Positions 1 to 9,344 of a DNA stretch of 38,540 bases are shown here, piece by piece. This DNA comes from Candidatus Omnitrophota bacterium (GTDB lineage Bacteria > Margulisbacteria > WOR-1 > XYC2-FULL-46-14 > WPAF01): the NCBI GenBank assembly GCA_035506255.1, contig DATJPS010000017.1, positions 1 to 38,540 of the forward strand, given 5' to 3'. Made by a program: the position numbers and the translations under genes. Below the pieces are notes generated by a model. The model ran no database searches, was not told the DNA's origin, and was given only the letters and a program-made list of their open reading frames with translations. Within the stretch, counting starts at the first letter, position 1. Every line of letters starts with the position of its first letter.

Positions 1-646
1 GGTATATCTCTTCAAGCGTCCCGAATTGTTTCAACAGTTCGATCGCGGTCTTTTCCCCGACTTTAGGAACGCCGGGAATATTATCGGAAGTATCGCCTTT
101 TAACGCTTTGAAGTCGATCAACTGCGAAGGTTTAAGCCCGTCGTACCGTTCCTCCACCTCTTTTTCCCCGTAAAGGACGGTGTCGGTGATCCCTTTCCGG
201 GTGGTCAGCACTTTGATATTGTCGTCCACCAGCTGCAGTGGGTCGAGATCGCCGCTGATGATGGTCACTTTATATCCTTCTTTTTCCGCTTCGCGGGCGA
301 GCGTACCGATCACGTCGTCGGCCTCGAACCCCGCTAACTCGAAGACCGGGATGCTGAGCGCTTCGGCGATCTCTTTGACGTATGGCATCTGTTCGTGGAG
401 AGTGGGGGGCGCTTTATCGCGGGTCGCTTTGTATTCTTTGTATTCTTTATGGCGAAAGGTCGGCTCCGGCCGGTCGAACGCGATCGCCACGAAATCCGGA
501 CCGTCCTCCAGCGTCTTGAGTAGCATGGTGGTGAAGCCATATATCGCATTCGATGTGATCCCGGTGGAGGTCCGCATGGTGTCAGGAAGGGCGTAGAACG
601 CCCGGTAGGCGAGAGAGTTGCCGTCGATAAGATAGGCTTTCGGCAT
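1..646 (-). CDS. polA: DNA polymerase I, N-terminal 5'-3' exonuclease (FEN-like) domain; the gene's 3' part runs off the window
   Basis: Absent from the ORF track because the window edge truncates it. My translation of the minus strand from ATG 646..644 gives MPKAYLIDGNSLAYRAFYALPDTMRTSTGITSNAIYGFTTMLLKTLEDGPDFVAIAFDRPEPTFRHKEYKEYKATRDKAPPTLHEQMPYVKEIAEALSIPVFELAGFEADDVIGTLAREAEKEGYKVTIISGDLDPLQLVDD...LKGDTSDNIPGVPKVGEKTAIELLKQFGTLEEIY. These are classic Pol I 5'-nuclease motifs. Confidence 0.85.
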   Translation of the reverse strand, partial: MPKAYLIDGNSLAYRAFYALPDTMRTSTGITSNAIYGFTTMLLKTLEDGPDFVAIAFDRPEPTFRHKEYKEYKATRDKAPPTLHEQMPYVKEIAEALSIPVFELAGFEADDVIGTLAREAEKEGYKVTIISGDLDPLQLVDDNIKVLTTRKGITDTVLYGEKEVEERYDGLKPSQLIDFKALKGDTSDNIPGVPKVGEKTAIELLKQFGTLEEIY

Positions 647-652
647 GGGATA

Positions 653-661
653 AATATAGCA
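653..661 (-). promoter_or_regulatory. Candidate extended -10 promoter (TGCTATATT on the minus strand), 6 nt upstream of the polA ATG
   Basis: The minus strand reads TGC TATATT TATCCC ATG. There is no Shine-Dalgarno sequence in the 6-nt spacer. Confidence 0.4.
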
Positions 662-745
662 TAAAAACGGCGGGATTGACGGTTCGAAATCCGTTGAAAT
701 GCAAGGAATTAATTTAAAATCACGAAAATCTAGATAAAAAACGGG

Positions 746-753
746 TGTATAAT
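746..753 (+). promoter_or_regulatory. Candidate -10 promoter (TGTATAAT) for fibre paralogue 1
   Basis: TGTATAAT lies about 25 nt upstream of the ATG at 779 and is followed by the GGAGG ribosome-binding site at 768-772. Confidence 0.45.
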
Positions 754-778
754 TTTTCGGAAGCAAGCGGAGGTGAAA

Positions 779-2554
779 ATGCGAAAATTATTTATTGTTG
801 CCATTGTTCTGACCGCATTTATCCCATCCCTGGCCAGTGCCGCCAATATCCAATTGATCCTCGATTCAATTGATGGAAGCTCGGCGATGACCGTACTGAA
901 CGGGAATACGCAGGAAGTGGCAAGGATCGATTCTTTGGGCAGGATCGGGATCGGTAAAACTCCGAGTTGGTCTCTGGACATCAACTCAACTTTAACGATA
1001 GGGGTAAATTCAAGCACCAACGCTATCGGCGGCGTCGGGGTCTATGGCACCGCGTCTTCGACCGGCGGTTCGTCCAATACCGGTGTATTCGGTTCGGCGG
1101 CATCGAATATGGGCGGTTCGGCCGGCGTTTACGGCCAAGCTACCGGATCGACGGCGCAGGTTTATGGCGTTTACGGATACGCGACCGGTGCCCAGGGCCG
1201 AGGGGTCTATGGCGCACAGCCGAATAGCGGTTATGGTGGTTATTTCATGAATTCGGGCAGTGGTTATGGCGGCTATTTTTCCAACACCAGCAGCGGAGTC
1301 GGTCTTTATGCGACTTCGACTTCGGGATACGCCGCGATATTCAATAACGGTAACGTTGGGATCGGTCTGGCCAATCCTGCCGTCACTTTCGAGGTGGGCG
1401 CGAATCATGCGCTGTCGGTGAACGCGGGCTCCGGCAATATTGGCGTTGGCACTACTGCACCGGAATTTAAACTGAGCTTAGCGTCCGACGGCGGGATCCT
1501 GGCCAAGGGGATCGTTGGAGATATCGGGAACGATACGCAAGGAACTTCACTTTCGACTTCGGGCTCCGGGGTCAGGATGATCTGGTATCCGAGGAAAGCG
1601 GCGTTCCGCGCCGGATACGTGGACGGCAGCCAATGGGACAACGCGAACGTCGGCAAGTACTCGGTCGCTCTGGGACATAATTCTCAAGCTACTTTGGAGA
1701 GCGGCATCGCTCTCGGTGTCGCGTCGAGGGCCGGTTATTGTGGCGTGGCGACCGGAGTGCTTTCGGTGGCGGGGAATATGTCGACCGCTCTTGGCTGGCA
1801 ATCTACGGCGAACGGGATGGCATCCACCGCCACGGGGATTTTGACGGCGGCGACCGGGGATTATTCCGCTGCTTTCGGTTGGTCCACCACGGCCAGCAAT
1901 CAATGCTCAGTCACCATGGGGAACAACATCACTAACAATTATGCCAACGCGCTGATGATCGGCGATAATACGCAGGATATCCTTTTAAATCCTGACGGGA
2001 ACAGCTGGCTTCAGTGCCGGCTGGGCTATTTGGGCGTCGGGACCACCGCTCCGACCGACATGCTCACCGTGGCCGGCAATGTGGTCCCGGCCTCGGATGC
2101 GATAAATACATGCGGAAAATCCGGTAAGCGATGGTACCAGATCTGGGCTTCGACCGGGACCATCCAGACCTCGGACGATCGGATCAAGGCGGGCCAAAAA
2201 GATCTGGGCAAGGGGTTGGCAGATATCGAAAAGTTAAAGCCGAAGGAATATTTCCTCCGGAACGCCGAAATGACAGGGAAGGGGATCTCGTTCAAACCGG
2301 GAGGAAAAAAGGATATCGGGCTGATCGCCCAGGAGCTGTACAAGGTGATTCCGGAGGCGGTGTACAAACCGTCCGACGAAGCGAAAGAGCTTTGGGGAAT
2401 AAATTATGAAAAGCTGATACCGGTCATGATAAAAGCGATCCAGGAAGAGCAAAAGACGGTCGCCGGGCTGCAGAAAAAAGTGGACGACCTGGCGGCGGAC
2501 AAACAAACCCTCGAATCCCGGATAAAGGCACTGGAGGCCGGCGGGCGGAAATAA
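779..2554 (+). CDS. Secreted mosaic fibre paralogue 1: signal peptide, shared N-module, Gly/Tyr-rich shaft, YadA/Hep_Hag-like head repeats, C-terminal peptidase-S74 intramolecular chaperone domain
   Basis: The track ORF is 773..2554, but I prefer the ATG at 779, which sits 6 nt after GGAGG. Signal peptide: MRKLFIVAIVLTAFIPSLASA. N-module: ANIQLILDSIDGSSAMTVLNGNTQEVARIDSLGRIGIG. Head-like region: RMIWYPRKAAFRAGYVDGSQWDNANVGKYSVALGHNSQATLESGIALG...STALGWQSTANGMASTATG. The C-terminus has SDDRIK...GLIAQELYKVIPEAV...YEKLIPVMIKAIQEEQ followed by a coiled coil. Confidence 0.85.
   Translation: MRKLFIVAIVLTAFIPSLASAANIQLILDSIDGSSAMTVLNGNTQEVARIDSLGRIGIGKTPSWSLDINSTLTIGVNSSTNAIGGVGVYGTASSTGGSSNTGVFGSAASNMGGSAGVYGQATGSTAQVYGVYGYATGAQGRGVYGAQPNSGYGGYFMNSGSGYGGYFSNTSSGVGLYATSTSGYAAIFNNGNVGIGLANPAVTFEVGANHALSVNAGSGNIGVGTTAPEFKLSLASDGGILAKGIVGDIGNDTQGTSLSTSGSGVRMIWYPRKAAFRAGYVDGSQWDNANVGKYSVALGHNSQATLESGIALGVASRAGYCGVATGVLSVAGNMSTALGWQSTANGMASTATGILTAATGDYSAAFGWSTTASNQCSVTMGNNITNNYANALMIGDNTQDILLNPDGNSWLQCRLGYLGVGTTAPTDMLTVAGNVVPASDAINTCGKSGKRWYQIWASTGTIQTSDDRIKAGQKDLGKGLADIEKLKPKEYFLRNAEMTGKGISFKPGGKKDIGLIAQELYKVIPEAVYKPSDEAKELWGINYEKLIPVMIKAIQEEQKTVAGLQKKVDDLAADKQTLESRIKALEAGGRK
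2171..2551 (+). other. Peptidase S74 (endosialidase-type intramolecular chaperone, autoproteolytic) domain of paralogue 1
   Basis: The motif S-D-D-R-I-K has Ser and Lys five residues apart, as in the Ser/Lys dyad of tail-spike C-terminal chaperone domains. It is followed by IGLIAQEL, INYEKLIPVMIKAIQE and a terminal coiled coil. Confidence 0.75.
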
Positions 2555-2576
2555 CCCGATATATTCAGATTAAAAA

Positions 2577-2585
2577 TGATATAAT
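2577..2585 (+). promoter_or_regulatory. Extended -10 promoter TGATATAAT for fibre paralogue 2
   Basis: An exact TGnTATAAT lies 31 nt upstream of the ATG at 2616. The same 10-mer, ATGATATAAT, precedes paralogues 3 and 4. Confidence 0.5.
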
Positions 2586-2609
2586 CCTCCGAAATCGACC
2601 GTTCGGAGG
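2586..2609 (+). promoter_or_regulatory. Perfect 8-bp hairpin pairing an anti-SD (CCUCCGAA) with the paralogue-2 Shine-Dalgarno (UUCGGAGG)
   Basis: cctccgaa (2586-2593), loop atcgaccg, ttcggagg (2602-2609). The start codon is at 2616. Confidence 0.35.
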
Positions 2610-2615
2610 GCATTA

Positions 2616-4655
2616 ATGAAAAGATATATCGCACTGGTCGCGTGTTTGTCGCTTTTTATTGTTTCTCACCCGATCCTTGCCGCCGATGTCAATGTCATTC
2701 TCGATAATTCCCCAGGTTCGCTGGTGATCAAGGATTCTTCGCGAAATACGGTCGCTTCTGTCGATTCCACCGGCATCGGGGATTTCTATTTACTTCACAA
2801 CCGGGCGACCGATTTCAGGCTGAGCGATAATACGCACGGCCGCGGCGATCCCGGGGCGGGGAGGGCGCTGGTGCATGCTCCGGGCAACCAGTTGACGCTC
2901 AATTATGCCGGCGACTTTACCGGAGGGACCAATATTTATGGCAGTCCGGTCTTTATCCCCAATAACGTCGGTATCGGCTCGACTAATCCGATAAGCAAGC
3001 TGGAACTTTCCGGGTCCGGAGGCGATACCGGGGTCGCGATCCGGTTCGATGAAACCTCGAACCGCCAGTGGGCCCTATATCCGAACGGAGGCATTTTCCG
3101 AATTAAGGACTTGAACGCGGGGAGTGATTATCTTACCGTTCAGGGCGGAACGGGGAACATAGGGATCGGGACGACCAATCCGCTATCGAAGATAAGCGTC
3201 AACGACAATGGCGCCGCCAATTATGGTATCTATAGTTTAGGTTCTTCTACCGGGGTCTGTGGTGTCAGTAATTCCGGTTACGGGGTATGGGGATGGTCCA
3301 GTTCCGGATTAGGGATCTACGGCTCCTCCTCTTCGGGTTTCGCCGGTTATTTTAACGGTAACAGCTATTTTAGCGGAAATGTTGGCATAGGGACGACTGC
3401 CCCGAGAGGTAAATTGGATATCTCGACCGGCGGAATGAACTCGTATATTGAATGCGGCGCCGGAAGCGTTTATTTGGGGGATTACAGTAATGTGGCGAAC
3501 AACGTATACCAGCAAATAAATGGCGACGATCCAAATTCGGGCTTTGTGTTCAAGAATGGGACGGTTCAGATCTTGAATGGAAATGTCGGCATTGGGACGA
3601 CCAATCCGGGAGCACTTCTAGAGGTGGTGGGGAACATTAAGCTCGGGTTCAATGCGCTTGGCCGGACCATACAAGGGGCCGATTCCTCCGGCTCCGGGAC
3701 CCCGCTGATCATCAGATCGGGCAGTAACACGGGAGGAAGTTATCCTGCCGGCAATCTTAGCCTGGAAGCCGGGACCAGCACTTCCGGCGGTACTTATAAC
3801 GGGAGCATACTTTTTTCGACGGCTGGAACGGAAAGGATGCGGGTCAATCGTAACGGCAATATCGGGATCGGTACCACCAATCCTTTATCTCCCCTGCATA
3901 TTTATACTTCGAATGGCGATGCCTACGCCGGACTGGTGATCCAGAAGAACGGGGCCAAGACGCTTTCAATAAACCAGGGATCGTCGAACAAGTTGAACTT
4001 TACCGAACCGGGAGTGGTCGACCTGATGACGGTCGATTTCAGCGGCCTGAGGGTAGGGATCGGCAACGCTTCCCCTTCGAGCGGCAAGTTGCAGGTCACG
4101 ACAAGTTCCGGCACGGCGATCTACGGTTCCGGTGGTGGGTTCGGGGCGGAATTGTACGGGTCGAGCACCGGGGTTTATGCTAACGGCGATACTGGTGTTA
4201 ATGCGTATGGCGCGACCTATGCCGGATATTTCCAGGGGAAATTATACGTGTCTACTCTCTCTTCCAACGGAACGGTCTATTCGAACGGGAGCATCCTGAC
4301 CAACACCAACCCGTCATCCATCAGGTATAAAAAGGATGTCAAAGACCTGCCGATCGAGACGGATAATATCCTGAAGCTGAGGCCGGTCTCATTCATCTGG
4401 AAGAACAATGGCCAGAAGGACGTCGGTCTGATCGCGGAGGAAGTGGCAAAACAGGTCAAGGACCTGACCGCCCTTAATTCGGCAGGATCGATCGAAGGGG
4501 TCAAGTATGACAAACTGCCGGTATATTTGCTGGGAGTGATCAAACAACAGCAGAAGCAGATAAATGATCAAAGCGGCGAGATTAAACAGATAAAAGCCGA
4601 AAATCAGGACCTGCAGTCACGCCTGAAGGCGCTGGAAGTCAGGCTCGCCAAATAG
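2616..4655 (+). CDS. Secreted mosaic fibre paralogue 2: signal peptide, repeated NVGIGTTNP..LE[LV] collar motifs, 64-aa shared module, Gly/Tyr-rich segments, C-terminal peptidase-S74 chaperone domain
   Basis: Signal peptide: MKRYIALVACLSLFIVSHPILA. N-module: ADVNVILDNSPGSLVIKDSSRNTVASVDSTG. There are at least six GN[VI]GIGTT[NA]P repeats. The C-terminus has SSIRYKKDVKDL...VGLIAEEV...VKYDKLPVYLLGVIKQQQ followed by a coiled coil. Confidence 0.85.
   Translation: MKRYIALVACLSLFIVSHPILAADVNVILDNSPGSLVIKDSSRNTVASVDSTGIGDFYLLHNRATDFRLSDNTHGRGDPGAGRALVHAPGNQLTLNYAGDFTGGTNIYGSPVFIPNNVGIGSTNPISKLELSGSGGDTGVAIRFDETSNRQWALYPNGGIFRIKDLNAGSDYLTVQGGTGNIGIGTTNPLSKISVNDNGAANYGIYSLGSSTGVCGVSNSGYGVWGWSSSGLGIYGSSSSGFAGYFNGNSYFSGNVGIGTTAPRGKLDISTGGMNSYIECGAGSVYLGDYSNVANNVYQQINGDDPNSGFVFKNGTVQILNGNVGIGTTNPGALLEVVGNIKLGFNALGRTIQGADSSGSGTPLIIRSGSNTGGSYPAGNLSLEAGTSTSGGTYNGSILFSTAGTERMRVNRNGNIGIGTTNPLSPLHIYTSNGDAYAGLVIQKNGAKTLSINQGSSNKLNFTEPGVVDLMTVDFSGLRVGIGNASPSSGKLQVTTSSGTAIYGSGGGFGAELYGSSTGVYANGDTGVNAYGATYAGYFQGKLYVSTLSSNGTVYSNGSILTNTNPSSIRYKKDVKDLPIETDNILKLRPVSFIWKNNGQKDVGLIAEEVAKQVKDLTALNSAGSIEGVKYDKLPVYLLGVIKQQQKQINDQSGEIKQIKAENQDLQSRLKALEVRLAK
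3000..3191 (+). repeat. Copy in paralogue 2 of the 192-bp / 64-aa shaft module (LELSGxGGDTGVAIRFDETxNRQWALYPNGGxFRIKDLNAGSDYLxxxGGTGxxGIGTTNP)
   Basis: The protein and nucleotide sequences align visibly with the tandem pair at 5140..5523 in paralogue 3. Confidence 0.8.
4314..4652 (+). other. Peptidase S74 intramolecular chaperone domain of paralogue 2
   Basis: S-S-I-R-Y-K has the Ser/Lys spacing of the autocleavage dyad. It is followed by LKLRPVSFIWK, VGLIAEEV, YDKLPVYLLGVIKQQQ and a coiled coil. Confidence 0.75.
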
Positions 4656-4678
4656 TTCGTTCGAATGTTTCTTTCTGA

Positions 4679-4687
4679 TGATATAAT
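4679..4687 (+). promoter_or_regulatory. Extended -10 promoter TGATATAAT for fibre paralogue 3
   Basis: An exact TGnTATAAT lies 36 nt upstream of the TTG start at 4723. The GGAGGG ribosome-binding site is at 4710-4715. Confidence 0.5.
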
Positions 4688-4722
4688 TCCATGAAAGAGG
4701 ATCGGCAACGGAGGGATCGATA

Positions 4723-6336
4723 TTGAACAGAAAATTTCTTGCGGCTATTGGCATGCTAACCGTGATGTTGTCCATTGTTTATGCGGCGGATGTGAACGTT
4801 GGCCTTGACAGTAAGAACGGGTCTTCCGCGCTGAACATCAAAAATTCGGATGCCAACATTATCGCGACGATCAAATCCTCCGGGTCGCTGGAAGCCGGGT
4901 GGACCGCCAAGGCGTACGGTAAATACATACTTTCCGGTGTCTCCGATCAGGGTGATGGCCTGGTCGCGGACGACACTTTTGAAAGGGTGTTCGGGTTGAC
5001 CCGGAACACCAACAATGAGATCCGCCTGCTCGGTTTTGGACCATTGACTTTTTGGAACGGTAGCGCCACCGGCACCGAAAAAATGAGGATCAAGACAAAT
5101 GGCAACGTAGGTATTGGAAATACGGATCCTGCCTGTCGCCTGGAGCTTTCGGGTGCCGGTGCGGACACGGGGGTCGCGATCAGGTTCGATGAAACGGCGA
5201 ACCGTCAATGGGCGTTGTACCCGAACGGTGGCACTTTCAGGATAAAGGATCTTAACGCCGGGAGTGATTATTTGTCGATCAAGGGAGGGACCGGCTATGT
5301 CGGCATCGGGACGACTAACCCGGTGAGCGTGCTTGAACTTTCCGGTGCCGGTGGTGATACCGGGGTTGCGGTAAGGTTCGATGAAACGGCCAACCGTCAA
5401 TGGGCGCTGTACCCGACCGGCGGCACTTTCAGGATAAAGGATCTTAACGCCGGGAGTGATTATGTGTCGGTCATGGGAGGGACCGGTTGGGTCGGTATCG
5501 GGACGACCAACCCGATCGATGTTATGCATATTTCAGACTCCAACGCGAACATAGTGTACGGAACAAGTGAAGTAATAAACAACGACGCCAAGATCGGGAG
5601 GGCCGGAGGCAACAACTATCATATCACCGGGACATTGGCCGGAGATCTTGCCATCCGTCCGGAATCGACGAAAAAGATAGTGTTTGGCACCGCTTCGACG
5701 TCCGGCAGTACCGCAACGGCCAGAATGGTCATAAGCAAGGATGGCAACATTGGGGTCGGCACTACCGCTCCCGCCTCGGTCCTTGATGTCAACGGCGACA
5801 TTAAGCTTGCCGCTACGTCAGCGCCGACAGGTGCGGCGGGGAAGATCTATTTCGATTCTACCACTAGCCGTCTTAATTACCACGATGGCTCCAAGTGGAT
5901 AGAAGTGGACCCTATGTATACCACTAAACCGACAAAATCCCTTAACACCAGCGGTTTTAGCGGAGACATTTCCAGTACAAACACTTATACTGCCAACATT
6001 GGCTCCGTGCTTGCGAACAATTCCATTATAACGACGATCATAGGGCGTTTCCATGTCTCCTGCTCGAACACGGTCAGGAACCTTTACTTTGAACTACTTG
6101 ACGGGAGTAATAATGTGCTGGTCAGCTTCATTTGCCCGAACAGTACCTATATGAGCGATTATTCCGGCCTCTCGTTTTGCGTGCCTTGGGGATTCACCTA
6201 TCAATTGCCCATTCCCGTTTATGTAGCCAGTGGTAACCAGATCAAGATCCGAATATCCCAATACGGAACAACGTACGGAGCTGCTACTGGTATTTGTACC
6301 GGAGCCACCGTGAATTATATCGAACTTCCGCTGTAA
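4723..6336 (+). CDS. Secreted mosaic fibre paralogue 3: signal peptide, N-module, two tandem 64-aa shaft modules, conserved neck, divergent C-terminal tip ending YIELPL
   Basis: TTG start 7 nt after GGAGGG. Signal peptide: MNRKFLAAIGMLTVMLSIVYA. N-module: ADVNVGLDSKNGSSALNIKNSD. Neck: VLDVNGDIKLAATSAPTGAAGKIYFDSTTSRLNYHDGSKWIEVDPMY. The tip ends ...YQLPIPVYVASGNQIKIRISQYG...VNYIELPL. Confidence 0.85.
   Translation: MNRKFLAAIGMLTVMLSIVYAADVNVGLDSKNGSSALNIKNSDANIIATIKSSGSLEAGWTAKAYGKYILSGVSDQGDGLVADDTFERVFGLTRNTNNEIRLLGFGPLTFWNGSATGTEKMRIKTNGNVGIGNTDPACRLELSGAGADTGVAIRFDETANRQWALYPNGGTFRIKDLNAGSDYLSIKGGTGYVGIGTTNPVSVLELSGAGGDTGVAVRFDETANRQWALYPTGGTFRIKDLNAGSDYVSVMGGTGWVGIGTTNPIDVMHISDSNANIVYGTSEVINNDAKIGRAGGNNYHITGTLAGDLAIRPESTKKIVFGTASTSGSTATARMVISKDGNIGVGTTAPASVLDVNGDIKLAATSAPTGAAGKIYFDSTTSRLNYHDGSKWIEVDPMYTTKPTKSLNTSGFSGDISSTNTYTANIGSVLANNSIITTIIGRFHVSCSNTVRNLYFELLDGSNNVLVSFICPNSTYMSDYSGLSFCVPWGFTYQLPIPVYVASGNQIKIRISQYGTTYGAATGICTGATVNYIELPL
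5140..5523 (+). repeat. Tandem duplication (2 x 192 bp, 2 x 64 aa) inside paralogue 3
   Basis: Unit 1 is 5140..5331 and unit 2 is 5332..5523. The peptides are nearly identical: LELSGAGADTGVAIRFDETANRQWALYPNGGTFRIKDLNAGSDYLSIKGGTGYVGIGTTNPVSV and LELSGAGGDTGVAVRFDETANRQWALYPTGGTFRIKDLNAGSDYVSVMGGTGWVGIGTTNPIDV. Confidence 0.9.
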
Positions 6337-6456
6337 AGGATCCCGGCGAACACTACCGTCGGCGTCAGGCTGACGCAGGTGGGCGCTTCCATCTATATGC
6401 TGGCCTATCTCTATATTGACCGTTTTTCGTTGCAATATATAGAATTGCCGCTCTAA
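6337..6456 (+). pseudogene. Orphan 3' cassette: 39 codons plus stop encoding the last strands of an LPL-type tip (…IPANTTVGVRLTQVGASIYMLAYLYIDRFSLQYIELPL*), in frame directly behind the paralogue-3 stop codon
   Basis: My translation of 6337..6453 gives RIPANTTVGVRLTQVGASIYMLAYLYIDRFSLQYIELPL, followed by TAA at 6454-6456. It matches the family pattern [LF]PIP..V..G..I...I......Y[IM][EA]LPL seen at the ends of paralogues 3, 4 and 5. It has no start codon or ribosome-binding site of its own. Confidence 0.65.
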
Positions 6457-6470
6457 ACGCCATTTTTCTA

Positions 6471-6479
6471 TGATATAAT
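6471..6479 (+). promoter_or_regulatory. Extended -10 promoter TGATATAAT for fibre paralogues 4-5
   Basis: An exact TGnTATAAT lies 30 nt upstream of the ATG at 6509. The GGGAGA ribosome-binding site lies just before the start. Confidence 0.5.
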
Positions 6480-6508
6480 TGCGCCAAGATTTTTCCTGGG
6501 AGAATGAA

Positions 6509-7219
6509 ATGAAAAAATTCGCGTTGGCTATCATACTGGTCATCCTTGCCGCCGTATCCGCTTTCTCTGCTAATTTAAAGATGATCCTAGATTCGAACGA
6601 TGGCAGCTCCGCGTTCCTGGTACAGGACAACACCTCCAGGGAAGTCGCGAGGATAAACTCGCTGGGAAATGTGGGCATTGGCACTTCGTTGCCGGTATCG
6701 ACGCTGGAAGTGAACGGCGATATTAAGCTGGCATCGATGTCGGCCCCCTCCGCCGCACCGGGCAAGGTCTATTTCGATTCTACCTCCAGCCGATTGAATT
6801 ACCATGACGGGACCAAATGGATAGAGGTCGACCCTGCCTATAGCACAAGAGAAGTAAAAGATTATGTTATCCAGGCTCTATATACTGGGGCCGGGCCTAC
6901 GGCTTACGATATTGCCACGCCCGCAAGAGATATCGTAATTACGGAGATGTCGATGTTGACGAGCGTTGGCGACATATGGATCAACAACAGCACAACCATC
7001 GAAGCGACTCTCTATGTGGGTGGGGTAAGGAAGGCTTATTTGAATTATTATTTCCAGTACAATACTTACATGGATCCGATCAAAGGTCCGCCTCCGCTGG
7101 TCTTTCCTATACCGATCAAGGTCAGTGCGGGGACCGATATCTCGATGACGATCTTAGGGTCGCATACACATAATAGGGCAGATGAGTTCCGTCTCAAATA
7201 TATGGAACTGCCGTTGTGA
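6509..7219 (+). CDS. Secreted fibre paralogue 4 (minimal form): signal peptide, N-module, neck and LPL-type tip with no shaft modules
   Basis: The track ORF starts at 6479, but I prefer the ATG at 6509 (MKKFALAIILVILAAVSAFSA). N-module: NLKMILDSNDGSSAFLVQDNTSREVARINSLGNVGIGTSLPVSTLEVNG. It runs straight into the neck DIKLASMSAPSAAPGKVYFDSTSSRLNYHDGTKWIEVDPAY. The tip ends FPIPIKVSAGTDISMTILG...LKYMELPL. Confidence 0.85.
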   Translation: MKKFALAIILVILAAVSAFSANLKMILDSNDGSSAFLVQDNTSREVARINSLGNVGIGTSLPVSTLEVNGDIKLASMSAPSAAPGKVYFDSTSSRLNYHDGTKWIEVDPAYSTREVKDYVIQALYTGAGPTAYDIATPARDIVITEMSMLTSVGDIWINNSTTIEATLYVGGVRKAYLNYYFQYNTYMDPIKGPPPLVFPIPIKVSAGTDISMTILGSHTHNRADEFRLKYMELPL

Positions 7220-7239
7220 TCCGATAGGGAGGGCATAAC

Positions 7240-8676
7240 ATGAAAAAATATGTTTTGATCGTTGTGCTGATCGGTTTAGCCTCTGCCTCCGCTTTTTCCG
7301 CCAACGTAAAGATGATATTGGATTCTTCGGACGGCAGTTCTGCGCTATCGATCCAGGATAAGACCTCAAAGGAAGTGGCAAGGGTTGATTCTTCTGGCAG
7401 AGTGGGGATTGGGACGACTGCTCCGTTATATGGTCTTGATGTCAGTACGACCCTGACGCGGGGGATCAATTCGGTCTCAAACGCTTACGGCGGCTACGGC
7501 GTTTATGGCACAGCCTCAGATACTTCGGCAGTAGGGCCGAATTACGGAGTCTACGGGTCCGCGGCGGCCAATTTTAACGGATCGGCCGGCGTGTACGGCG
7601 TTGCCACCGGTTCCCCGAGCCAGGTCTACGGTGTTTACGGTTCGGCGGGCGGTCTCAGCGGCCGCGGGGTATTCGGTACGGAATCGGGCGGCGGTTACGG
7701 CGGTTATTTTTTAAACTCCAGCAGCGGCGTAGGGTTGTATGCTGCTTCCACTTCGGGCTATGCCGCGGTCTTCCCCTCGGGCAATGTCGGTGTAGGGACG
7801 GCGAGCCCTAGCAACCTGCTTACCCTGCAGGGATCCGCGACCCCTCAGCTGATGATCACCCAGCCATCGGCAACCGATGCCCTGACCCTGGGTTACAATG
7901 AGGCGTCTTACGCTTATATGGCCACCCTTGGCTCGCATCCGCTGGCACTGTTCACGAACAATCTAGAACGGCTGCGCGTAACCTCGGCCGGCAATGTGGG
8001 TATCGGAACGACCGGACCAGGAGAAAAGCTGGAGATCGTCGGGAACGCAAAGATCACTTCCCTGTCCACTTCGTCTAATGTGACGATGAGCAACGCGATC
8101 ACCGCGGCCGGGAACTACGGACTTTCCGTAATAATAGACGGAGTGGAGCGGGGGAGCGTCGACCGGTTGGGGAACGGTTATCTTTCGAACACGCTCACGC
8201 TCGCATCGGTTGCGGCACCGACCGCCGCCACCGGCAAGATCTATTTCGATTCGACCGTCCATCGGCTTAAATATTACGACAGCACCAAATGGATCGAGAT
8301 GGACCCGGCCTATACCAATAATTCACTTCAATCGACACCGATGTATTCCGTTTCGGGGACCAATACCGCCAACATGAGCATGCTCACTCCAGGTACTGAT
8401 ATAATAATAACCGGGATCGCCGGCAACACTGACTGGTTGACCAACCAGTGCCCGGAATACCTGATCGAACTTTATAACGGGAGCACGAGCTATGTCAGCA
8501 TTTATGTGCCGGATGACCGGGGCGATTACGAATATTCTCTACCGATACCGGTGAGGGTCCCGTCCGGTACCGCGATCTCGGCCAGGATCACCGCCAAAGA
8601 TTACACCGGCGCGAACTATCTCGGGACCTACGCCACGCTGCGCTGCACGATGCGATATATAGCTCTGCCTTTATAA
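7240..8676 (+). CDS. Secreted mosaic fibre paralogue 5: signal peptide, N-module, Gly/Tyr-rich shaft (as in paralogue 1), collar repeats, neck and LPL-type tip
   Basis: GGGAGGG ribosome-binding site, 20-nt gap after paralogue 4. Signal peptide: MKKYVLIVVLIGLASASAFSA. N-module: NVKMILDSSDGSSALSIQDKTSKEVARVDSSGRVGIGTTAP. Shaft: GVYGTASD...GVYGSAAANFNGSAGVYGVATGSPSQVYGVYGS...GYGGYFLNSSSGVGLYAASTSGYAAVF. Neck: GKIYFDSTVHRLKYYDSTKWIEMDPAY. The tip ends LPIPVRVPSGTAISARIT...MRYIALPL. Confidence 0.85.
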   Translation: MKKYVLIVVLIGLASASAFSANVKMILDSSDGSSALSIQDKTSKEVARVDSSGRVGIGTTAPLYGLDVSTTLTRGINSVSNAYGGYGVYGTASDTSAVGPNYGVYGSAAANFNGSAGVYGVATGSPSQVYGVYGSAGGLSGRGVFGTESGGGYGGYFLNSSSGVGLYAASTSGYAAVFPSGNVGVGTASPSNLLTLQGSATPQLMITQPSATDALTLGYNEASYAYMATLGSHPLALFTNNLERLRVTSAGNVGIGTTGPGEKLEIVGNAKITSLSTSSNVTMSNAITAAGNYGLSVIIDGVERGSVDRLGNGYLSNTLTLASVAAPTAATGKIYFDSTVHRLKYYDSTKWIEMDPAYTNNSLQSTPMYSVSGTNTANMSMLTPGTDIIITGIAGNTDWLTNQCPEYLIELYNGSTSYVSIYVPDDRGDYEYSLPIPVRVPSGTAISARITAKDYTGANYLGTYATLRCTMRYIALPL

Positions 8677-8689
8677 TTGAATTAAATAA

Positions 8690-8720
8690 AAAGGGGAAAG
8701 GATAAAATCCTTTCCCCTTT
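8690..8720. terminator. Bidirectional intrinsic terminator between the convergent fibre array and tsf
   Basis: A 13-bp perfect stem, aaaggggaaagga (8690-8702) paired with tcctttccccttt (8708-8720), with loop taaaa. There is a T-rich run on the tsf side and A/T-rich flanks on both sides. Confidence 0.7.
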
Positions 8721-8741
8721 AACCAAATAAGAGGCTGCTAT

Positions 8742-9344
8742 TTAAGACTTTTCGCCCAGCTGATATCTGATGAACCGCCGCACCACGATGTTCTCGCCGA
8801 TCTTGGCGGCCAGCCCGCCCAGCAGATCTTTTATCTTGATCTTCGGGTCGCGGATAAAAGGCTGTTCCATCAGGCAGACCTCTTCGTAGAATTTCTGCAC
8901 TCTACCGTCGATTATCTTTTCCCGTGCCTTTTCGGGTTTGCCTTCCGCTTTTGCCTGCTCGCCGATCAGATCTTTTTCGTGCTGCAGCACCCCTTCGGGC
9001 ACTTCGTCAACAAAAATATAGGCCGGGTTTTGCGCGGCGATCTGCATGGCCACGTCCTTGCCGAACTGAAGAAAATCCTCGTTGCGCGCCACGAAATCGG
9101 TCTCGCAATTCACCTCGAGCAGAACTCCGATCTTGCCTCCGGTGTGTACATAGGATACGACCGAACCCTGGGCGGCGGTGCGCTCGGCGCGTTTGCCTAC
9201 CGCGGCCAAACCTTTTTTACGCAGGGCATCGACCGCCAGGTCCATGTCGCCGCCGGCCTCGGCCAGCGCTTTCTTACAGTCCATCATGCCGCAGCCGGTC
9301 TTTTCGCGCAGTTTTACGATGTTCTCGGTGGTTACTTCCGCCAT
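8742..9344 (-). CDS. tsf: Translation elongation factor Ts (short, 200-aa form)
   Basis: MAEVTTENIVKLREKTGCGMMDCKKALAEAGGDMDLAVDALRKKG (UBA-like N-terminus), then GKIGVLLEVNCETDFVARNEDF. The start overlaps the rpsB stop (TAATG). Confidence 0.95.
   Translation of the reverse strand: MAEVTTENIVKLREKTGCGMMDCKKALAEAGGDMDLAVDALRKKGLAAVGKRAERTAAQGSVVSYVHTGGKIGVLLEVNCETDFVARNEDFLQFGKDVAMQIAAQNPAYIFVDEVPEGVLQHEKDLIGEQAKAEGKPEKAREKIIDGRVQKFYEEVCLMEQPFIRDPKIKIKDLLGGLAAKIGENIVVRRFIRYQLGEKS

Follow-up and report, generated by a model that had tools for sequence, protein, structure and literature searches.

An orphan 3' fragment of a YIELPL-type tip behind an intact fibre gene, probably a young remnant of rearrangement in a chromosomal fibre array

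In Neisseria, silent pilS cassettes serve the antigenic variation of pilin. For Rhs genes, displaced ('dissociated') C-terminal tips were found downstream of intact genes, and these orphans retain a stretch of the conserved core that permits homologous re-insertion (Jackson et al., 2009, PMC2935791); orphan CdiA-CT/Rhs-CT modules were reported as well (Poole et al., 2011, PMC3150448). The mosaic adhesive trimer (MAT) fibres of Bdellovibrio comprise S74 and non-S74 subfamilies (Caulton et al., 2024, PMC10769870). Here we analysed a stretch of 38,540 nucleotides of a Candidatus Omnitrophota genome, hereafter the window, in which a complete fibre gene is followed directly and in frame by an orphan tip fragment. 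Probably, this fragment is neither translated nor functional and represents the 3' end of a fourth tip of the YIELPL type, left behind by a recent recombination or deletion in the fibre array.

Five co-oriented genes for signal-peptide-bearing, fibre-like proteins lie between positions 600 and 8800 on the forward strand, where the signal peptides and a shared N-terminal block were judged by inspection. P1 (593 aa, 773..2554, +) contains YadA-head-like repeats and carries a C-terminal Peptidase_S74 chaperone domain in place of the YIELPL tip, and the fibre P2 (679 aa, 2616..4655, +) likewise ends in a Peptidase_S74 chaperone domain. P3 (537 aa, 4723..6336, +) begins with a TTG start codon and is composed of a signal peptide, two ricin-like stalk repeats, a neck and a complete YIELPL-type tip, which matches an external tip profile over positions 1-135 of 135 with 89.7 bits. 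P4 (236 aa, 6509..7219, +) is the shortest fibre, in which a single neck links the signal peptide and N-terminal domain to a complete tip, and P5 (478 aa, 7240..8676, +) also ends in a complete tip. P3, P4 and P5 share at their ends a domain of about 135 residues closing in ...Y(I/M)(E/A)LPL, to which no Pfam or NCBIfam family corresponds. The stalk of P3 contains a tandem repeat of 192 nt (64 aa; 5107-5322 and 5299-5514, …GDTGVA(I/V)RFDETANRQWALYP.GGTFRIKDLNAGSDY…) with a weak match to RicinB_lectin_2, and a third copy of this repeat is located in P2 (2967-3182), with 71-75% DNA identity.

The array is flanked by housekeeping genes, with polA upstream and, in addition, tsf, rpsB, relA/spoT, lptF/G, lnt and pnp, as in a diderm bacterium. 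The reading of the five genes as phage tail fibres had to be abandoned, since the array lies between polA and tsf and signal peptides are present. A search of 2.9 million viral contigs found no relatives either. P1-P5 are located on a bacterial chromosome (polA … tsf/rpsB) and are chromosomal fibres, not phage tail fibres.

We modelled the neck and tip of P4 with AlphaFold from a 25-sequence alignment (mean pLDDT 83.8), which predicted an eight-stranded beta-sandwich behind three short neck strands. Foldseek comparison of the tip model with the PDB returned weak jelly-roll matches only (E 5e-4 to 1e-2, TM-scores 0.35-0.47), including the C-terminal domain of lambda gpJ, the receptor-binding domain of TM4 gp23, the TNF-like lectins BC2L-C and PLTL, 4-1BBL and viral capsid jelly rolls, and the tip profile had no match among PDB sequences even at E <= 1. 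Across the homologues collected (P0001-P0134), the YIELPL tip domain (5899-6336, 6821-7219 and 8293-8676 in the window), predicted to form an eight-stranded jelly-roll/TNF-like sandwich, is carried by short (~230 aa) to mid-sized secreted fibres of many uncultured bacteria, often encoded in tandem arrays.

The P3 protein ends in ...NYIELPL, followed by TAA at 6334-6336. Directly behind this stop, 39 sense codons (6337-6453, +, frame 0) keep the frame of P3, beginning with AGG at 6337 and running to a second TAA at 6454-6456, and they encode the peptide RIPANTTVGVRLTQVGASIYMLAYLYIDRFSLQYIELPL; the coordinates and peptide given in a preliminary description of this DNA are exact. The in-frame position and the open frame weigh little beside the profile match reported below, because the prior chance of in-frame placement alone is 1 in 3 and that of a 39-codon open frame alone about 0.15. 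A GGATCC (BamHI) site at 6338-6343 overlaps the junction after the P3 stop, which is probably a coincidence, given 13 such sites in the window versus about 9 expected. On the minus strand, an ORF of 223 aa (6094-6765) overlaps the orphan together with the end of P3 and the start of P4; it is most likely spurious and has no Pfam match.

In pairwise Smith-Waterman comparisons with P3, P4 and P5, the orphan scored above 1998-2000 of 2000 shuffles. Since the YIELPL motif supplies much of the pairwise score, the orphan was also evaluated with an HMM made solely of external sequences. A profile search seeded with four tips yielded 4562 proteins at E <= 0.001, which mostly matched the repeated neck only, a full tip being present in about 27 of the matches listed; 28 tips were aligned, and HMMs were made with and without the window's own sequences. 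The external-only HMM (25 tips of other organisms, zero window sequences, 135 positions) was compared with the 1173 stop-to-stop pieces in the six frames of the window. Here the orphan obtained 23.5 bits (E = 3.8e-6) and ranked fourth, behind the three intact tips, the next piece having an E-value of 1.6, and no further tip-like piece was detected in any frame of the window. With 6, 8 or 12 residues cut from its C-terminus, the orphan scored 6.8, 5.6 and 5.4 bits, respectively, each value exceeding all 1000 shuffles, so that the likeness extends beyond the final six residues; a likeness limited to these was the outcome by which the preliminary description would have been refuted. As had been claimed from its resemblance to LPL-type tip ends, the segment truly derives from the 3' part of a YIELPL-type tip, and this resemblance is not due to chance.

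The match spans profile positions 100-135 of 135, that is, the last 36 positions of the tip domain, corresponding to its last two beta-strands. Both the profile and a MAFFT alignment set R-I-P-A-N-T of the orphan against K-V-K-A-G-T / R-V-P-S-G-T, just past (F)PIP(I/V), with RIPANTTV pairing with the profile consensus kvkagttv downstream of the FPIP(I/V) motif, and a paralogue from the related locus L005 (...LTIPVKVPANTEVGF...) makes this register clear. The preliminary description had let the orphan start at the (P)IP motif, a placement that needs correction, as its first residue falls just past PIP, at position 100. The orphan is hence a partial tip that ends in the pattern ...RIPANTTVGVRLTQ...QYIELPL and lacks the DIIIT strand, the FPIP motif and the GKIYFDS...WIEVDP neck, with the P3 stop located upstream. 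In the structural model it maps to strands 7 and 8 plus two residues of the PIP strand, and it is predicted to be incapable of folding alone as an autonomous domain.

The second TAA (6454..6456, +) would be the original stop of the gene from which the orphan came. The 52 nt that follow (6457..6508, +) are a normal inter-paralogue spacer, in which TGATATAAT (6471-6479) represents an extended -10 element and GGGAG the ribosome-binding site of P4. The extended -10 element ATGATATAAT is also found in the P1-P2 and P2-P3 spacers, about 13-22 nt past the preceding stop. Because this spacer resembles the other inter-paralogue spacers, the orphan still precedes 'its' spacer.

A syntenic relative (L004) has the gene order polA, a 593-aa protein (S74), a 563-aa protein, a 495-aa protein (P0010), a 480-aa protein, tsf and rpsB, in which the gene for the 480-aa protein is the orthologue of P5, and both the orphan and P4 are absent from this locus. 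The P3-type orthologue in L004 shows no extension behind its stop. Orphan-like tails were not found behind P4 and P5 or behind the tips of L002-L006 and L023-L028 (about 16 distinct intact tips), from which it follows that the segment is not an invariant feature of related genomes, the pattern that the preliminary description would have taken to suggest a structured 3' UTR element. In both L004 spacers the -10 element takes the form GTGATATAAT, and (A/G)TGATATAAT was observed as an extended -10 in each promoter-bearing fibre spacer (2576-2585, 4678-4687 and 6470-6479 in the window; gaps 1327-1506 and 2995-3119 in L004). The end of the orphan with its flank (GAATTGCCGCTCTAAACGC) agrees with the end of P0010 with its flank (GAATTACCGCTTTAAACGC) at 17 of 19 positions, and this flank match to the P0010 end is better for the orphan end than for P3's own end, a weak hint that the orphan may occupy the ancestral 3' end of gene 3.

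P0010 (L004 1507-2994) is about 70% identical to P5 over residues 1-190, and its neck and tip are about 60% identical to those of P3. It is a chimera that clearly attests to an exchange of modules near the neck. The orphan had been put forward as direct evidence for cassette exchange at the fibre tips. Taken alone, it shows only an illegitimate junction or a truncation, whereas P0010 offers better evidence for the exchange of modules. Two further observations were made in related loci. In L004, the two spacers, together with the first codons of the genes that follow them, are almost identical to one another along about 70 nt, suggesting that gene conversion took place there recently. At L005 2792-4009 (Ga0335071_10004856), a tandem array of seven tip-bearing paralogues includes one with an in-frame TAA (3653-3655) inside the tip (…ISSASKG*NKILDAS…), beyond which the tip continues in the same frame and is intact to YIELPF; this TAA is due either to a sequencing error or to a nonsense mutation by which the gene recently became a pseudogene, and in the latter case it would exemplify the damaged copies that the family accumulates.

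When compared with 30 tip ends, the orphan was most similar to P0001 from an uncultured sediment MAG (18/40 identical residues, 45%; similarity score 69), and P5 (54), P4 and P3 (41) all scored lower. On the DNA level, the orphan is 47-55% identical to the three resident tip ends. As it is nearer to P0001 than to P3, P4 or P5, we take it not to be a copy of a resident tip and to derive from a fourth tip type. In searches for an intact donor tip, the 40-aa query gave no candidate, and the 28-row tip alignment including the orphan gave 1163 candidates, none of which scored; both searches were limited by the word index, and a donor may still exist.

The state of preservation of the orphan was assessed by leave-one-out scoring of the equivalent terminal fragments from 28 intact tips. 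These intact ends reached 16.4 ± 4.6 bits, with a maximum of 26.5, and the orphan, with 24.5 bits, lies above 26/28 of them. Simulated neutral substitutions led to a loss of about 3 bits at 0.03 per site, 5-6 bits at 0.06 per site and about 9 bits at 0.10 per site. The orphan has barely decayed, and it was either orphaned recently or is still under selection, since a score this near the maximum of the intact ends, together with the simulated losses, points to a recent event (or to continuing selection). Its GC3 of 0.69 and codon-adaptation index of 0.645, both calculated from 39 codons, are typical of host genes. The GC3 of the P3 tip is 0.53, and that of its last 39 codons 0.44; as proof of a foreign P3 tip, however, GC and GC3 values are suggestive at best, because the samples are small and tips are generally GC-poor.

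We propose that a single recent illegitimate recombination joined the nucleotide past the P3 stop to the middle of a lost tip, which would have been part of a sixth paralogue or of an earlier gene 3. Besides the final pair of beta-strands, the event would have spared the former stop and, behind it, the former spacer, including the promoter that serves the following gene, and we infer that the orphan is not translated. Three histories may be envisaged for the kind of event. A deletion could have extended from just past the P3 stop into the tip of an adjoining sixth paralogue, which is favoured because the relative has a P3-type tip at the same position and because the orphan is young. Displacement of the former tip of gene 3 by an incoming neck-tip-stop module is favoured, in turn, by the 3'-flank match to the relative and by the contrast in codon usage (GC3 0.69 vs 0.44-0.53). 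As a third possibility, the orphan might have been imported as the frayed left border of a segment on which the spacer and P4 also arrived. The clues on deletion and displacement conflict and point opposite ways. The recombination scar assumed in the preliminary description thus holds as such, and between its two versions, insertion of a tip and a sixth paralogue truncated at its 5' end, the evidence points both ways. At the join itself, a GTAA microhomology with ...CTG TAA A may have been used, provided that the lost gene read ...CCG GTA AGG ATC CCG and encoded P-V-R-I-P, as in P5.

The flush in-frame position of the orphan and its consensus-like sequence would also fit a fragment under selection. 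We consider it distinctly unlikely that the orphan is retained in this way, be it as a minimal silent cassette for P3, P4 and P5 or as a low-frequency read-through extension of P3; if true, it would represent a new and very compact way to vary the last two strands of a bacterial adhesin tip. A silent partial cassette acting as a donor for the gene conversion of tip ends, like pilS or the orphan C-termini of Rhs/CdiA, would account for the lack of decay in an exceptionally consensus-like sequence, and host-like codon usage, three adjoining acceptor genes and the mosaic nature of the family are compatible with it. However, the orphan is a single copy comprising a quarter of the domain, has no conserved upstream neck or core to prime homologous recombination, shares only about 47-55% DNA identity with the resident tip ends, is not accompanied by flanking repeats or inverted repeats and has no counterpart in about 16 other tip contexts, all of which renders such a donor role very unlikely. 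Read-through of the P3 TAA would append 39 residues to some P3 molecules, and the intact ORF, in frame from the very next codon and with good codon usage, would permit this. Yet the stop context is UAA-A, and UAA followed by A is an efficient terminator in bacteria; the window has no suppressor tRNA gene (in fact no tRNA gene at all), and the downstream fold is not significant against shuffles (z-score -1.22). Furthermore, the P3 tip is already complete to YIELPL, so that an extension would add a second set of strands 7 and 8 lacking a packing partner, and neither the orthologous gene of the relative nor the other tips, about 16 in number, bear such a tail. We therefore agree with the preliminary description in ranking read-through lower, and regard it as extremely improbable. 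Nor did an RNA element receive support, as Rfam returned no match at the gathering threshold or at E <= 1 and the fold was no better than that of shuffles (z -1.2).

The junction is known from one genome, a metagenomic contig, which raises the question of whether a metagenome assembler joined in tandem two versions of gene 3 that come from different strains and differ in their tips. A Logan contig (SRR8879134) is 100% identical over 6505-9117 (2.6 kb) and begins at 6505, just short of the junction, which therefore lies outside it. Exact-protein look-ups returned no record for P2, for P4 or for P3 starting with either M or L, which for P3 and P4 means absence from the contig index, and P5 was recorded solely in the same 2.6-kb Logan contig. 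Against such a misassembly, a de Bruijn misjoin requires a shared k-mer, and there is none on either side of 6336/6337; even the best-conserved DNA of the paralogues reaches no more than 70-75% identity, and a collapsed bubble would yield one tip rather than one and a quarter. We thus judge an artefact to be unlikely. A tandem duplication of P3's own last ~120 bp with subsequent divergence would explain why the unit lengths agree (39 codons plus stop vs 38 plus stop), would automatically leave the copy flush and in frame, and is in line with CCGCTGTAA and CCGCTCTAA bracketing the unit. The P3 end is, however, among those least similar to the orphan (score 41, vs 54 for P5 and 69 for P0001), the two copies are identical at 59/125 nt, and a non-coding copy that had diverged so far could not have stayed more consensus-like than most functional tips. 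On the grounds of the similarity ranking and the lack of decay, this duplication was rejected as hardly credible. An invertible or shufflon-type switch was dismissed too, since the orphan is in direct orientation and the three inverted pairs within 600-8800 (19-27 nt, 70-88% complementary) do not bracket it. The same applies to a diversity-generating retroelement, for the P3 end and the orphan, with 59/125 identical nt, are not nearly identical, and a partial scan of the large ORFs of the window detected neither a recombinase nor a reverse transcriptase.

A recently orphaned, non-functional 3' end of a fourth tip type is most likely an ordinary object, namely a young gene remnant in a little-studied family. 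Small pseudogene remnants of this sort commonly arise when tandem gene families are rearranged, and the orphan adds little mechanistic novelty. Its value would lie in its being a datable footprint, according to which a chromosomal fibre array formerly included a fourth type of tip and underwent remodelling very recently. It also draws attention to an uncharacterised tip domain on MAT-like fibres that appears to be swapped between stalks in related genomes, and which may be of interest for research on bacterial adhesins, predation or epibiosis.

Regarding known systems, the locus shares with Rhs and CdiA a silent 3' fragment with a different C-terminal end, located directly 3' of an intact family member, and the exchange of C-terminal modules between conserved cores. 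Rhs/CdiA orphans, which are frequently found in series, retain part of the conserved core along with an entire toxin domain and the gene for immunity, and homologous recombination can re-mobilise them. In contrast, the present orphan is a single copy without neck or core that covers only the last 36/135 positions, and it has no partner gene, with P4 beginning after the 52-nt spacer. Under the single-crossover circle model of Jackson et al., the neck and the whole tip would be left behind, so that the orphan would require a further deletion. By analogy, then, the orphan can be regarded as comparable to the displaced Rhs tips, without their reusable core. With the silent pilS copies of Neisseria it has in common that it is a promoter-less 3' gene fragment near expressed paralogues, but the many copies, conserved flanking blocks and dedicated recombination initiation of pilS were not seen at the orphan locus.

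The array is reminiscent of the tail-fibre and receptor-binding mosaics of phages in having exchangeable C-terminal beta-sandwich heads on conserved stalks, from which it differs by the TM-scores of just 0.35-0.47, the lack of viral relatives in the 2.9 million contigs and the housekeeping neighbours. The tip profile and P1 showed no sequence match to the solved MAT structures, and we know of no orphan tip fragment described for MATs. Unlike the MAT genes, those of the window form one tandem array. As in MATs, nevertheless, chromosomal fibre paralogues with signal peptides share a conserved N-terminal domain, contain repeated VGIGT..P...L neck/capping-loop motifs and terminate either in Peptidase_S74 (P1 and P2) or in a beta-sandwich tip instead (P3-P5, where the sandwich is predicted). 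In their architecture, P1-P5 appear to resemble the MAT fibres of Bdellovibrio.
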